DNA of 64,000 nt from a virus, in IMG/VR virus record IMGVR_UViG_3300031957_002648, positions 12,088 through 76,087 of that record; one strand, written 5' to 3'. The notes beneath the pieces are model-generated. The model saw only the letters and a list, made by a program, of their open reading frames with translations. It did not search any database and was not told the origin of the DNA. The position numbers and the translations under genes are program-made. Each line of letters starts with the position of its first letter. Within the stretch, counting starts at the first letter, position 1. Of the stretch, positions 4,696 to 30,544 are shown piece after piece.

Positions 4696-4780
4696 TGCGA
4701 GTAGGGAGACTTGAACTCCCACGACCGTAATGGTCAACAGATTTTAAGTCTGGTGCGTCTACCGATTCCGCCATACTCGC
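4696..4780 (-). tRNA. tRNA-Leu (UAA)
   Basis: GCGAGTATGGCGGAATCGGTAGACGCACCAGACTTAAAATCTGTTGACCATTACGGTCGTGGGAGTTCAAGTCTCCCTACTCGCA; long variable arm, anticodon TAA. Confidence 0.95.
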
Positions 4781-4960
4781 AAGGCATTACACTTATCCGA
4801 ATGCTTGCTATGGGGCAATTAAACCCAACATTCTGATAGTTTGTAATGGAGTAGGACAGGGGTCCACCCTGAACATCCAAAGGGGGCTGATTCCCAACTA
4901 CAGGGTTTCGGTATATCCGAACCGCTGGGCACCTTTGGTTGGAACGTCTCAAGTTCCTTA
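4781..4960 (-). ncRNA. Structured RNA between tRNAs (manA-motif-like candidate)
   Basis: Stems GGAAC/GTTCC; CCAAAGG/CCTTTGG enclosing CCCAGC/GTTGGG and TCGG/CCGA; CAGGG/CCCTG; CATTAC/GTAATG enclosing GAATG/CATTC. GC-richer than surrounding DNA. Family assignment is from recollection only. Confidence 0.55.
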
Positions 4961-5033
4961 TGCTTCCTGAGAGGATCGAACTCTCCTTAGGCGAATTATG
5001 AGTTCGCTGCATTCACCAGATTGCTAAGGAAGC
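4961..5033 (-). tRNA. tRNA with CAU anticodon (elongator Met or Ile2)
   Basis: GCTTCCTTAGCAATCTGGTGAATGCAGCGAACTCATAATTCGCCTAAGGAGAGTTCGATCCTCTCAGGAAGCA; G1-C72 paired and no GGG/CCC anticodon stem, so not an initiator. Confidence 0.9.
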
Positions 5034-5036
5034 AAA

Positions 5037-5108
5037 TGGTTCTGCCGAGAATTGAACTCGGTTCACACGCTTATAAGGCATGGGCTTTAACCAATAAGCA
5101 ACAGAACC
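5037..5108 (-). tRNA. tRNA-Ile (UAU)
   Basis: GGTTCTGTTGCTTATTGGTTAAAGCCCATGCCTTATAAGCGTGTGAACCGAGTTCAATTCTCGGCAGAACCA; loop CTTATAA gives anticodon TAT. Confidence 0.9.
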
Positions 5109-11477: not shown

Positions 11478-13463
11478 CTATGTATAAGCTAGGATAACCC
11501 TTGATATACTATTTAACACACTTGCAGTATCATCTCTTTGTACCCTATACATGGTACTTCCCGGTGCTGGTGCTGGAGATTCCATTCTCGGAGTTCCAAT
11601 GACAACTGCGTTTCTTCCTCGTCTATCTTGAACTGTTCTTCTTATCTGAGGTCTTTGTCTTGATCTAGCTGCAACACTATCTTGAGATACCAAACTAGCT
11701 TGAGATCCTGGAGCTCCATGAGATACAGTTATATTATTTGTACCAATAATAACTGCTTCTCGACCATATCCAGATCTCCAACGCCACTGCCTTACGGCAA
11801 ATGGGAATGTTGTTTTTGATCCAACCTGAGATGGGAAAGTTTGAGGAGCTGTTGGGTGATGTTCTTGAATATCAACAGCAGCACTACTTCTTCTTCCATG
11901 AGCTTGCTGCTCTGCTGCAATTAAAGATTTGAGATCTTGATCTGATATACCTCTCCTAGCATCTCTTCCAATACTTCCAAAATGTACCCATGATCCTCTG
12001 GCAAACATTGCCTTAACTGCACGGAAAGCAACGTCCCTAATTTCTGCCAGTTGTGACGCAGACGGATTTCTTGGGCCATCAATATGAAAATGTGTCCCAT
12101 ATTCTGTTTCAGACGAATCACTAGATCCACCTTGAATAAATCCAGGTTCTCCCATTCTTACTGGTATTAAACCTGTTCCAGCAATTGGAGTTCTTCTCCG
12201 TACAGGTCTCTGTGTAGTTTGCCTCCGTGTAGTTTGCCTCTGTGTGGTTTCTGATGTGCCAGTATTGAATCGTCTAAGTTGTTCTTCACCACCTGTAAGT
12301 TTTATAAAGTTTATATACTCTTCCAATGAGATACTTCCATCTTTATTGCCATAGATCAAATCAATATTTTTATTTTCCACATATGCGGCGCTGGGTGATG
12401 AATATAATGCTGAATTCATATTCAGTTTACCAAGATCTGCTGGTCGTATGTTAGCCAGTGCAAGATTTCCCATCCCACCTGCAGTTCTAAAGAATCCAGC
12501 GTCTTGTAAATATTTTTCATGAATCGCTACTTGATCTGCCCTAGACAATCTTCTAAATTGTTCTTGAGTATATCCATATCTAACATCCCCAAATGATCCA
12601 CCAAACATTAGTTGGAATAATCCAGTTGCAGCATCATTCTCTGGATTGACTATGCTGGGGTCTAATCTAGACTCTGCATTATATAAAGACATCAATTCGG
12701 ATGGATTTACTTTTGCTCTCGCTGCTAGTTTCCTCACTGCCTCCTGAAACTCAACATCTTGTTCTATATCTTCAACTGGAGCAGATCCAGTTACATTTAA
12801 CAAAGAACCACCTGCTGTTGGATCATCAGGATCCTCAGATGCAAGATCCTCAGCAAGTTTCTTTACCTCAGCCGTCATCTCATCCCATTGCTTATTCAAA
12901 TCATCAAAACTTTTATTCATTTCATCAATTTTTTCTTGTATCTTTCCTTCACTATCCCAAAAATCAAGTCTTTTCCAGTTCTCTATAGTTTGAGTCACAA
13001 CAGCTGTCATACTATTAAATACTGTTCCCATTTGCATAACAAGTCTTTTGATAGATGCAAAGATCTTCTGTATTCCAGAGAAGAAAATCTTTACCTTTTT
13101 GATAAAAGAAGGGATAAATTTAATCAACCATCCAATACCAATCATCACCAAGGCATCAAGAATATTGCCCATAACACCTGCTTTGCCACTCACACCTTTC
13201 GGGTTCTTCTTAAATAATTCTGTTTTTGATTCTAATTTTGTCTCTCGATCAAATTTTCTTTGCTTATCTCTAGCAATTATTTTATCTCTTTTTTGTTTTT
13301 TTACTAACTGTTCTTCTCGCTTTTTTTTATCAAAATAAAATTTATATAATTTTGCTGTAGATTGCTTTACTAAAACTGTAGACTCAATGACATTGGCCAA
13401 GCTATTGCTAATCGAATCACTCGGTTTGGATCTTGGTAAAAACTTCTGAGTATTAAGAGTCAT
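11478..13463 (-). CDS. Tail/baseplate protein with lytic transglycosylase domain and M23-like peptidase region
   Basis: Coiled-coil N-terminus; AESRLDPS...ATGLFQ (SLT motifs); C-terminal THFHID...H-x-AVD...GYG...SH. Confidence 0.75.
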   Translation of the reverse strand: MTLNTQKFLPRSKPSDSISNSLANVIESTVLVKQSTAKLYKFYFDKKKREEQLVKKQKRDKIIARDKQRKFDRETKLESKTELFKKNPKGVSGKAGVMGNILDALVMIGIGWLIKFIPSFIKKVKIFFSGIQKIFASIKRLVMQMGTVFNSMTAVVTQTIENWKRLDFWDSEGKIQEKIDEMNKSFDDLNKQWDEMTAEVKKLAEDLASEDPDDPTAGGSLLNVTGSAPVEDIEQDVEFQEAVRKLAARAKVNPSELMSLYNAESRLDPSIVNPENDAATGLFQLMFGGSFGDVRYGYTQEQFRRLSRADQVAIHEKYLQDAGFFRTAGGMGNLALANIRPADLGKLNMNSALYSSPSAAYVENKNIDLIYGNKDGSISLEEYINFIKLTGGEEQLRRFNTGTSETTQRQTTRRQTTQRPVRRRTPIAGTGLIPVRMGEPGFIQGGSSDSSETEYGTHFHIDGPRNPSASQLAEIRDVAFRAVKAMFARGSWVHFGSIGRDARRGISDQDLKSLIAAEQQAHGRRSSAAVDIQEHHPTAPQTFPSQVGSKTTFPFAVRQWRWRSGYGREAVIIGTNNITVSHGAPGSQASLVSQDSVAARSRQRPQIRRTVQDRRGRNAVVIGTPRMESPAPAPGSTMYRVQRDDTASVLNSISRVILAYT

Positions 13464-26052: not shown

Positions 26053-26083
26053 ATGCCTTGGATTGCTTCGCCTAGTATAGCAC

Positions 26084-26110
26084 AAAAAAAGAGGGTCGCA
26101 AGACCCTCTT
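26084..26110 (-). terminator. Rho-independent terminator overlapping a promoter
   Basis: AAGAGGGTC-TTGC-GACCCTC followed by T7. Confidence 0.85.
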
Positions 26111-26373: not shown

Positions 26374-26433
26374 TGGTAGTCTCCTAAAAGAATGGAAAGT
26401 TAACCTTCTCTGCCGTAGCAGGATCCGTTTTCC

Positions 26434-26721
26434 CGTTCCTTCAGTCGTGTGCGTCCTTGGTATCAAAACAACTGGGTTCAGTATGTTCGATCCATCTTGT
26501 GATGATATCAAACTTCTGAGAAGGAGTAAACAGAGTAGAACTCTGAATTCCTTCTTTTAACCATTCATAGTCTTCACACCGAAGATAATCTTCAGGTGGG
26601 ACATGCATGAATAACACAGTCAGCAGTGATAACATAGGATGAACGCTCCGTTCCGCGACTTACTTGCGTCCTGTGGCGTCTTTCTAGACTATCTGCCTAG
26701 CGACTACCACCCGGATGAACG
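26434..26721 (-). ncRNA. Double glnA-motif (glutamine riboswitch)-like RNA enclosing an ORF
   Basis: CGTTCATCC...GGACGCAAGTAAGTCGCGGAACG-GAG-CGTTCATCC...[ORF]...GGACGCACACGACTGAAGGAACG, matching P1 CGTTC/GAACG and the AGTA/GAAG junction of glutamine aptamers. Confidence 0.75.
26441..26635 (-). CDS. Hypothetical protein nested in the riboswitch-like RNA (64 aa)
   Basis: ATG lies 1 nt after CGTTCATCC; the last codons GAC GCA CAC GAC TGA are aptamer nucleotides. Confidence 0.7.
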   Translation of the reverse strand: MLSLLTVLFMHVPPEDYLRCEDYEWLKEGIQSSTLFTPSQKFDIITRWIEHTEPSCFDTKDAHD

Positions 26722-26728
26722 TATGGCC

Positions 26729-26780
26729 ATTATATGACCTTTCGATTATTTAGTCAAGTATTTTTGTAACATATGATACA
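26729..26780 (-). promoter_or_regulatory. NtcA box plus sigma70 promoter and late promoter
   Basis: TGTA-N8-TACA at 26765-26780; TTGACT-N17-TATAAT (26757-26729); CTAAATA overlaps the -35. Confidence 0.75.
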
Positions 26781-27691: not shown

Positions 27692-28747
27692 TTAGAGTGC
27701 GTTGCCTCTCGGGAGAACTTCCTCTGGAAATACAAACTGCTCGTGTGGCTGATCTACTGGTGCCATCCATGCACGGAGCCCTTCGTTGAGCAAGATGTTC
27801 TTCGTGTAGAAGGTCTCAAATTCAGGATCTTCTGCTGCTCTAATTTCTTGAGAGACGAAATCGTAGGCACGAAGATTAAGAGCCAAGCCAATAATGCCAA
27901 TGGAAGAAGTCCAGAGACCCATAACAGGAACAAAAAGCATAAAGAAATGCAACCAACGCTTATTGGAGAAGGCGATTCCAAAAATCTGGGACCAGAAACG
28001 ATTGGCAGTAACCATCGAATAGGTCTCTTCTTCTTGAGTAGGCTCGAATGCCTTGAAAGTATTTGATTGTTCACCGTCTTCATAAAGTGTGTTTTCTACA
28101 GTAGCACCGTGAATAGCACAGAGCAGTGCTCCACCCAGTATACCAGCAACTCCCATCATGTGGAAGGGGTTGAGCGTCCAGTTGTGGAACCCTTGTAGGA
28201 ACAACAGGAACCTGAAGATTGCTGCCACACCGAAGGAGGGAGCAAAGAACCAGGACGATTGTCCCAGAGGATAGATAAGAAAGACGCTGACAAAGACAGC
28301 GATGGGACCCGAAAAAGCAATCGCATTATAAGGACGGATTCCAACTAATCGAGCAATCTCAAACTGCCTGAGCATGAAACCTATGAGAGCAAAGGCTCCG
28401 TGGAGCGCCACAAAATTCCAGAGTCCGCCAAGTTGGAGCCAGCGGACGAAATCTCCCTGAGACTCAGGACCCCAAAGTAGAAGAAGAGAATGACCCATAG
28501 CGTCAGCAGGAGTTGACACAGCTGCCGTGAGGAAATTAGCGCCCTCAAGATAACTAGACGCCAATCCGTGGGTATACCAGCTTGTAACAAACGTCGTGCC
28601 AGTAAGCCAGCCACCAATTGCCAGATAAGCAGTGGGAAAAAGTAATAGTCCAGACCAGCCCACAAATACAAAGCGGTCTCGTTTAAGCCAGTCATCGAGG
28701 ACATCGAACCACCCCCTTTGCGGTATATTTAGTGTACTTGTTGTCAT
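27692..28747 (-). CDS. psbD: Photosystem II D2 protein
   Basis: [21 protein letters not shown]...[10 protein letters not shown]. Confidence 0.99.
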
Positions 28748-30397: not shown

Positions 30398-30503
30398 AGT
30401 AAGACCATCAGGGAAATGGTGGAGTTACTATTTCCTGTCACCCTTAGACAGGATATGAGAGACGTGCTTTATACACCCTATAGGTCTCGGTTTACGGGGT
30501 GTT
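30398..30503 (-). ncRNA. PhotoRC-II-like psbA leader RNA
   Basis: ACACCCC/GGGTGT stem with loop GAGAC complementary to downstream GTCTC; TCCTGTC/GACAGGA stem; AGTAA..ACCAT/ATGGT..TTACT stem just before psbA. Confidence 0.75.
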
Positions 30504-30544
30504 ACAATGGATTAAAAACCGTTACGTTTCTTAACCCGTTGACC

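Follow-up and report, generated by a model that had tools for sequence, protein, structure and literature searches.

Can a protein-coding gene be enclosed by a metabolite-sensing RNA, and what would its translation do to the sensor? The question is raised by a locus at positions 26434-26721 of a 64,000-nucleotide (nt) stretch of viral DNA, referred to here as the window (positions 12,088 to 76,087 of IMG/VR record IMGVR_UViG_3300031957_002648), where, on the minus strand, two sets of elements resembling the core of the glutamine aptamer surround an open reading frame (ORF) of 64 codons, ORF1, upstream of a second small gene, ORF2. An original prediction, made from the letters of the window, had read this locus as two interlocked or nested cores joined by one long-range helix, P3, and as a hybrid of riboswitch and leader ORF that would control a downstream DUF4278-like gene. 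The present comparison of related sequences supports a nested unit in which the two cores share one P3, with covariation favoring this arrangement over a tandem one. The best explanation of the available data is a nested two-core glutamine sensor that is closed around ORF1 and in which sensing competes with translation, a reading to which we assign a probability of roughly 0.6.

Arrangement and identity of the two cores

All of the elements listed in the original prediction lie on the minus strand between 26721 and 26434 where they had been placed, exact to the base (Table 1), and the two cores are indeed accompanied by a single P3 and a single E-loop. In the outer core, strand A1 faces C2 in helix P1; the far end of P3 opens into the inner core, which shares P3 and is written in permuted order (the 3'-type strand of P1', a short loop, CGUUCA, P2' and CGC), with C1 and A2 as the strands of P1'. 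As had also been claimed, the AUG of ORF1 adjoins P2', and its final codons and stop are aptamer letters (GGA-CGCACA-CGACU-GA, read as GAC GCA CAC GAC UGA), such that the last five codons of ORF1 and its stop consist of letters of the RNA.

To obtain relatives, IMG/VR was scanned with the ORF1 protein and with a pattern for the junction, yielding more than 200 distinct junctions, and 104 complete distinct units were parsed; nested and tandem structures were both scored on an alignment of 60 sequences. Because A1, C1, A2 and C2 usually read CGUUC or GAACG, most sequences fit either pairing. Where these strands are altered, A1:C2 and C1:A2 are preserved by compensatory changes and A1:C1 and A2:C2 are lost, in line with the interlocked or nested form that had been proposed. 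The four strands, in that order, read CGUUC, CAACG, CGUUG and GAACG in 46 distinct complete units and CGUUU, CAACG, CGUUG and AAACG in 5 more, and all of these distinct altered units (51/51) are compatible with nesting and broken for the tandem pairing, with 0 the other way round. C1 and A2 change jointly, to CAACG/CGUUG in 79 distinct junctions, to UAACG/CGUUA in 4 and to AAACG/CGUUU in 3, and are mismatched in only 3. On the alignment, the nested structure leaves P1 and P1' paired in 100% of sequences with 5 compensated cells, against 8 broken and 0 compensated cells for the tandem structure. The closing pair of A1:C2 (alignment columns 8-378) is CG in 59 sequences, UA in 1 and broken in 0, and this helix is compensated as CGUUU/AAACG in five distinct relatives; that of C1:A2 (columns 97-111) is GC in 56, CG in 4 and broken in 0. 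RNAalifold, run unguided on 13 ORF-free relatives, also returned the outer P1 and P2 and the inner P1' and P2' in the nested arrangement.

The P3 strands, which lie 210 nt apart in the window, covary across homologs, as the original prediction had suggested for AGTCG and CGACT. There are 20 distinct strand combinations, including AGUCG/CGACU, AGCCGACU/AGCCGACU, GGACGACG/CGCCGCCC and AGUCA/UGACU, and true partners out-pair shuffled partners in 5000/5000 trials. Non-canonical A.C or C.A oppositions occupy positions 3 and 6 of the 8-base-pair (bp) P3 in two of the three P3 types (e.g., in contigs L006 and L033); the type found in the window has U-A at position 3. The P2' pairs that span the loop of ~190 nt covary as well, from U-A to C-G and from C-G to U-A, with UA in 58 and CG in 2 of the aligned sequences at columns 113-359 and with CG in 53, UG in 3 and UA in 2 at columns 115-357. 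Position 1 of P3, its 3' end and the base preceding GGAG give a suggestive signal of three-way covariation, which varies with the register chosen and is not relied on here; nor is the minimum free energy (MFE) fold of the single sequence counted as evidence on topology.

Could the locus instead hold two ordinary riboswitches in tandem, A1:C1 sensing for ORF1 and A2:C2 for ORF2, each with its own platform, as in the "pseudo-cooperative doublet" of PMC9481103? Such an arrangement would draw on the ambiguity of most sequences, which permit both pairings, on the best local Rfam alignments in the window, which pair A1 with C1, and on the order of transcription, as A1:C1 is transcribed first and could form transiently. 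However, the altered units without exception retain the nested pairing and disrupt the tandem one, P3 joins both halves and covaries, the RF01739 alignment runs from A1 to C2 in ORF-free relatives, and a single E-loop and a single P3 serve two cores. The tandem reading is thus very improbable.

With regard to identity, the window yields no match to a glutamine family at the curated Rfam thresholds. A search with the glnA and Downstream-peptide models, put forward in the original prediction as a check, gave the native window only 14.3 bits for RF01739 (threshold 35) and 15.6 bits for RF01704 (threshold 33). The companion check, deletion of the ORF, is answered by natural relatives that are free of ORFs, in which RF01739 scores 35.1-43.6 bits across the whole nested unit and reaches its threshold from A1 to C2. 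The relative L058 scores highest (43.6 bits, A1 to C2), the model taking its inner core for a 38-nt insertion into P3, and L141, L135, L094 and L105 behave in the same manner. As RF01739 aligns from A1 to C2 in these relatives, the outer core appears to be a type-1 (glnA-type) aptamer. Its P1 of CGUUC/GAACG closes a three-way junction and keeps its pairing in every aligned sequence; its P2 of UCC/GGA carries a variable loop and is followed by the CGN strand, with CGC invariant in both cores; and the E-loop halves AAGUA and GAAG flank P3. The segment J23, CGCAAGUA, aligns to CGGAAGUA of RF01739, and J31, C2 and G26433 together (26433-26442), invariant or almost so in the alignment, align to GAAGGAACG. 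The pseudoknot of RF01704 has no counterpart, as no flanking hairpin is found around either GGAACG. In solved structures, glutamine is contacted by the two pairs, C:G and G:C, with which CGUUC/GAACG begins and by the G of the CGC strand, with further contacts from a hydrated metal ion and a long-range C:G pair that closes the site (PMC6698751). Across the alignment, the contact letters of both cores, among them the G that follows each GAACG, show no variation, and since every glutamine-contacting nucleotide is kept, each core probably binds one glutamine.

The design is widespread. The 40-nt junction occurs in 427 of 50,697 phage records, every one of them a cyanophage, which is far more than chance, and a segment that begins at GGACGCAAGUA and takes in ORF1 and the following gene has matches in 411 phage records at ~75% identity. 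S-SCSM1, S-RSM4 and S-RIM8, which belong to three genera, show the same order of parts with differing P2 hairpins. The junction was absent from 300 other genomes of one picocyanobacterial family, and a scan of cellular genomes gave mostly chance matches, as the information content of the pattern predicts, together with three real units, all on short or phage-sized contigs. One full nested unit was seen in a Synechococcus metagenome-assembled genome (G001:C1:190947-190975; L200/L282), on a 194-kb contig of cyanomyovirus size that probably represents a phage genome placed in the same bin as its host.

Table 1. Features of the nested unit and its surroundings, in window coordinates.
Feature	Positions	Strand	Remarks
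Sigma-70-type promoter (putative)	TTGACT 26757-26752; 17-nt spacer; TATAAT 26734-26729	minus	11/12 consensus positions
A1, 5' strand of outer P1, CGUUC	26717-26721	minus	pairs with C2, 26434-26438
P2 of outer core, UCC...GGA stem	26669-26715	minus	long variable hairpin; 3/3 bp changed on both sides, 100% paired
J23, CGCAAGUA	26661-26668	minus	CGC ligand-site strand and AAGUA E-loop half (26661-26665); invariant in 60 sequences
P3 5' strand, AGUCG	26656-26660	minus	partner 26443-26447
C1, GAACG	26649-26653	minus	first strand of inner P1' hairpin (26641-26653)
GAG loop of inner P1' hairpin	26646-26648	minus	
A2, CGUUC	26641-26645	minus	second strand of inner P1' hairpin
P2' 5' strand, UCCU	26636-26639	minus	immediately 5' of ORF1 AUG; A before UCC, after A2
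P2' extra 5-bp segment	UAUCA 26627-26631 with UGAUA 26461-26465	minus	
ORF1, 64 residues and stop	26441-26635	minus	fills P2' loop; AUG at 26635, UGA 26443-26441
P2' 3' strand, AGGA	26454-26457	minus	inside ORF1 codons 60-61
J23', CGCACA	26448-26453	minus	inner-core CGC ligand-site strand, directly 3' of ORF1 codon 61; CGC invariant in 60 sequences
P3 3' strand, CGACU	26443-26447	minus	final U is first base of ORF1 UGA stop
J31, GAAG	26439-26442	minus	other E-loop half
C2, GAACG	26434-26438	minus	3' strand of outer P1
G26433	26433	minus	partner of long-range C:G pair as in glutamine-II
Pyrimidine tract UUCUUUU and ORF2 Shine-Dalgarno AGGAG	26381-26392	minus	putative expression platform
ORF2, 54 residues	26209-26373	minus	two YRG motifs; phrog_545 (E 9e-34); DUF4278-like (IF17-like)
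Terminator-like hairpin, 9 bp, then U run	26080-26110	minus	closes unit of ~640 nt

The enclosed genes

Judged by its pattern of substitution, ORF1 is a conserved protein gene under purifying selection. It matches phrog_13397 (E 3.7e-32, residues 1-64 on profile positions 1-64), its median ratio of nonsynonymous to synonymous substitution rates (dN/dS) is 0.20, 32 unique relatives contain zero stops in 59 codons, and the entropy at codon positions 1, 2 and 3 is 36, 23 and 63, such that the third varies most. Conservation of the inner ORF, which the original prediction had made a point on which it could fail, is thereby borne out, and the label of a leader ORF that it had attached to this frame is not, since the gene is under purifying selection and has an aptamer-free homolog. 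This homolog, L040:701-883, encodes 61 residues at 49% identity on a viral contig of 63.9 kb, and its surroundings lack CGUUC, GGACGCA and GGAACG, so that the ORF1 family exists outside the riboswitch too. AlphaFold predicts a helical hairpin for ORF1 (predicted local distance difference test score, pLDDT, of 82) with a disordered, low-confidence tail, and two conserved Cys lie 36 residues apart in sequence. The tail, KDAHD, is dictated by the RNA and is missing from 59-residue variants that stop at UAG. As for function, Pfam holds no family for ORF1, Foldseek found nothing in the PDB at E <= 0.001, the ESM Atlas returned viral hypothetical clusters only, with scores below 0.9, and none of the homologs carries a name pointing to function.

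The layout of the window exemplifies a design that is broad among cyanophages: a gene may occupy either P2 loop or both. The P2 and P2' loops hold a hairpin and an ORF, as in the window, in 60 of the 104 units, two ORFs in 21, two hairpins in 13, and an ORF followed by a hairpin in 10. Several groups with little sequence similarity to each other can be told apart among the embedded proteins, which share a hydrophobic N-terminus and two Cys 35-37 residues apart. Their frames are fitted closely to the RNA, with 111 of 112 beginning 4-7 nt past CGUUC-A and nearly all stopping no more than 16 nt from the next CGCA, the stops lying in the 3' strand of P2 (UAG or UAA), in the AAGUAA of J23 or in CGAC-UGA-AG. 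The stem also continues into the ORF, as starts and ends pair with their own partners at 7.93 of 12 positions vs. 6.88 for shuffled partners, a value as high being found in 0 of 2000 shuffles, and within the ORF1 family a Leu codon is UUA where the opposite end has ...GAUAAC and the synonymous CUU where it has ...GAAGCA. The sole embedded ORF of the 112 with an AGGAGG of its own in the loop is that of L107:2040-2331, the AUG of which lies 16 nt after CGUUC; it offers a natural "uncoupled" control.

Several contigs from RNA libraries (X1, X2, X6 and X7) join the aptamer halves at 26453-26647, skipping ORF1, with few other letters or unknown sequence between them. These joints are no sign of transcription or processing of the RNA of the window phage, as the contigs stem from relatives in which P2' holds a hairpin or a different ORF; they indicate that loop content is interchangeable in natural populations. 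The 23 RNA runs covered small shares of the window stretch only.

Putative expression platform, proposed mechanism and alternatives

The promoter ends 8 nt before A1, and a comparable pair of TTGAC... and TATAAT precedes the aptamer in relatives; transcription would accordingly be expected to start at about 26722-26724, 1-3 nt before the aptamer. The TATAAT -10 box sits within a 15-nt palindrome, GGTCATATAATGGCC (26725-26739, minus strand), and relatives have a palindrome of other letters at the same place (e.g., GGTCTATAATAGACC and ATGGTATAATAACCAT), which might be an operator or a DNA hairpin. After C2 follow a short GG(G)...CC(C) hairpin, the pyrimidine tract, AGGAG and AUG. In the open state of the aptamer, CUGAAGGAA (26436-26444) is a possible pairing partner for the stretch 26384-26392, and RNAfold, applied to the isolated 3' halves of 94 distinct relatives, gives CUGAAGGAA a pairing probability of 0.65 with the tract and of 0.62 with the first Shine-Dalgarno bases, a mean of 7.7 of the 9 positions in the masking duplex being paired. 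The DUF4278-like character of the downstream gene had been read correctly, in that the proteins carry YRG motifs and DUF4278 is their sole Pfam match. ORF2 itself scores 19.2 bits against DUF4278 (PF14105; E 0.0016), under the gathering cutoff of 25.3; among the downstream proteins of relatives, 97 of 97 distinct sequences have two YRG motifs, and scores fall mostly just below the cutoff, with one passing it at 25.9 bits. In one relative, a nested glutamine unit without ORFs and the YRG gene that belongs to it are followed directly by a manA RNA (RF01745, 188.7 bits; L119:586-780).

These data allow a model to be proposed in which one short transcript, beginning at the promoter (26757-26729) and ending at the terminator near 26090, would fold into the nested two-core sensor, with the shared P3 coupling both cores. 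As the AUG of ORF1 lies 5 nt after P1' and beside P2', binding of the 30S subunit and folding of the inner core should exclude each other; from the size of the ribosome footprint, a 30S subunit at AUG 26635 would need both P1' and P2' to be open. At the other end, the last ORF1 codons and the stop are also the inner CGC strand, the 3' strand of P3 and the E-loop, so that a ribosome finishing ORF1 would likely cover the inner CGC strand, the P3 3' strand, GAAG and C2, and would open P3 and the outer core. High glutamine may lock both cores, blocking initiation on ORF1 and keeping CUGAAGGAACG in the aptamer, which would leave the U-rich tract and AGGAG free and allow the IF17-like YRG peptide to be made. 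At low glutamine, ribosomes would load on ORF1, and the 3' strand would mask the ribosome site of ORF2. P3, the E-loop and P1 all draw on the CUGAAGGAA strand, so that folding of the outer core should free the ORF2 site, and the predicted logic of ORF2 on with glutamine fits the behavior of known glutamine switches, both types of which are ON switches (PMC6212724). The sign of regulation, with glutamine turning ORF1 off and ORF2 on, is proposed tentatively, at somewhat less than even odds, because the ORF1 stop lies inside the masking helix and translation of ORF1 could itself switch ORF2 on. Held with slightly more reserve is the full form of the model, a translation-coupled toggle between two genes in which host nitrogen status would pick either the embedded small Cys-Cys protein or the IF17-like peptide, and in which the cores stacked on P3 would be cooperative in binding glutamine.

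An alternate scenario would leave the double aptamer in control of the YRG gene only, with ORF1 a cassette recombined into P2' at the twice-repeated core sequences and having no regulatory link. This would accommodate the finding of one ORF family in P2 in some contigs (L033 and L062) and in P2' in others, the occurrence of units with no, one or two ORFs (13, 70 and 21 of 104), the short hairpin that takes the place of ORF1, with the same boundaries, in RNA-library contigs of relatives, and the ORF1 homolog of L040 outside any aptamer. However, a passenger with its own ribosome site could start anywhere, yet all but one of the embedded frames start at a short distance of 4-7 nt from the core and extend through the loop up to at most 16 nt from where it ends, L107 alone having an AGGAGG of its own; each ORF end shows specific pairing with the start of the same ORF, and the choice between synonymous Leu codons covaries with the last codons. 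In addition, a translated gene in a working aptamer must disturb the aptamer, which makes neutrality of the passenger unlikely, and we regard this scenario as unlikely overall. Less likely still is a positive coupling, by which a ribosome ending at UGA (26441-26443) would melt the CUGAAGGAA:UUCUUUUAG helix and expose the ORF2 site, so that both genes would be made together and glutamine would tune or bypass this route. The predicted masking helix does have the ORF1 stop within its 5' strand, and most P2' ORFs stop at UGA in the P3/J31 region (offsets +13 and +16). However, in many relatives the stop is a UAG or UAA in the P2' strand, 15 nt farther upstream (offset -2), from which a ribosome would reach the masking helix poorly, ORF-free units retain the same downstream platform, and known glutamine switches operate without a leader ORF.

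Several points weigh against the nested sensor in competition with translation, the reading preferred here. The altered P1 ends probably derive from a handful of events, 4-5 of them independent, rather than from 51. The weak Rfam alignments in the window, obtained in E-value mode, cover only A1 to C1, and their scores are low. The single-sequence fold of the 357-nt RNA has a z of -4.6, and its MFE structure shows P1' and parts of P2' only, without reproducing the full nested fold. P2' in the window consists of only 4 bp and 5 bp around its large loop and would be weak without tertiary contacts, and the inner core has no E-loop of its own, which may bear on its affinity. A ribosome ending at UGA could melt the helix that masks ORF2, which would bring about co-expression of ORF1 and ORF2 instead of alternation. 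Finally, four metatranscriptomes contained contigs of relatives and no transcript of the window phage, with depth peaking on the conserved cores.

Relation to known systems and significance

In leader-peptide attenuation, the position of the ribosome on a short ORF sets the fold of the RNA, as is proposed for ORF1, and the homing-endonuclease ORFs of group I introns and transfer-messenger RNA (tmRNA) likewise place an ORF in a loop of a conserved RNA fold. The present locus differs from these systems in that the competing fold is a metabolite aptamer and in that ORF1 encodes a conserved family protein and no sensor peptide. The closest relative of the outer core is Glutamine-I (RF01739), known from the leader of Synechocystis gifB, which encodes IF17 (PMC6212724), with which it shares P1, P2, the CGN strand, the E-loop and P3, the position upstream of a DUF4278/IF17-like gene, and a passing score in ORF-free relatives. 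Unlike Glutamine-I, P3 here opens into a second, permuted core instead of a loop, one P2 loop holds a translated gene, the unit is phage-encoded, and the junction has the type-2 letters CGCA...GAACGG in place of CGGA...GAACGC. Glutamine-II (RF01704; structure 6QN3, PMC6698751) offers the core letters CGUUCA, GGxCGCA and GGAACGG, the long-range C:G pair, a following gene for a YRG peptide, and a helix equivalent to P1 that can assemble from separate strands on glutamine binding; unlike it, the present unit has no pseudoknot hairpin around GGAACG, and its inner core closes P1' with a 3-nt loop and has P3 in place of the type-2 linker. Tandem riboswitches, such as those for glycine (two aptamers and one platform) and the glutamine doublets (PMC9481103), also combine two like aptamers for one ligand on one mRNA, for which a sharper response is expected, whereas here the second core lies within a helix of the first, with a shared P3 and a single E-loop.

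A review of tandem riboswitches from 2022 counts 157 glutamine doublets, described as side-by-side and pseudo-cooperative, and makes no mention of nesting or of an enclosed ORF (PMC9481103). Full-text literature searches for a nested or ORF-containing glutamine aptamer returned nothing relevant, although an earlier account in Ames & Breaker 2011 or Ren et al. 2015 is possible. Two design ideas were not found in the riboswitch literature that was consulted and appear to be unreported: a second aptamer built in a helix of the first with a common stem, and a protein gene enclosed by an aptamer helix with both its start and its stop inside the sensor.

The phage of the window is a T4-like cyanomyovirus, with psbD at 27692-28747 on the minus strand. 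Two further features of the window are ordinary in T4-like cyanophages, namely a PhotoRC-II RNA (30420-30514, 80.2 bits) upstream of the photosystem gene region and a cluster of three tRNAs (4696-5108, minus strand).

Taken together, the data bear on how often such phages use RNA sensors. A census from 2017 found two glutamine aptamers in two cyanophage genomes, and phages were said to use riboswitches rarely (PMC5473149); against this presumed rarity, one junction alone marks 427 cyanophage records, and covariance-model scans overlook units that hold a gene. Should the toggle prove true, riboswitches would be common, not rare, in cyanophages, and the unit would be the first example in nature of an aptamer that closes a helix of its own around a translated gene and is regulated by that gene. 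The design allows ligand sensing to be studied against translation on one RNA, and the compact ORF-free units, of ~90 nt and with two predicted sites, are ready constructs for work on cooperativity and structure. It likewise offers a way to ask how the nitrogen status of the main primary producers of the ocean is sensed by abundant marine viruses.

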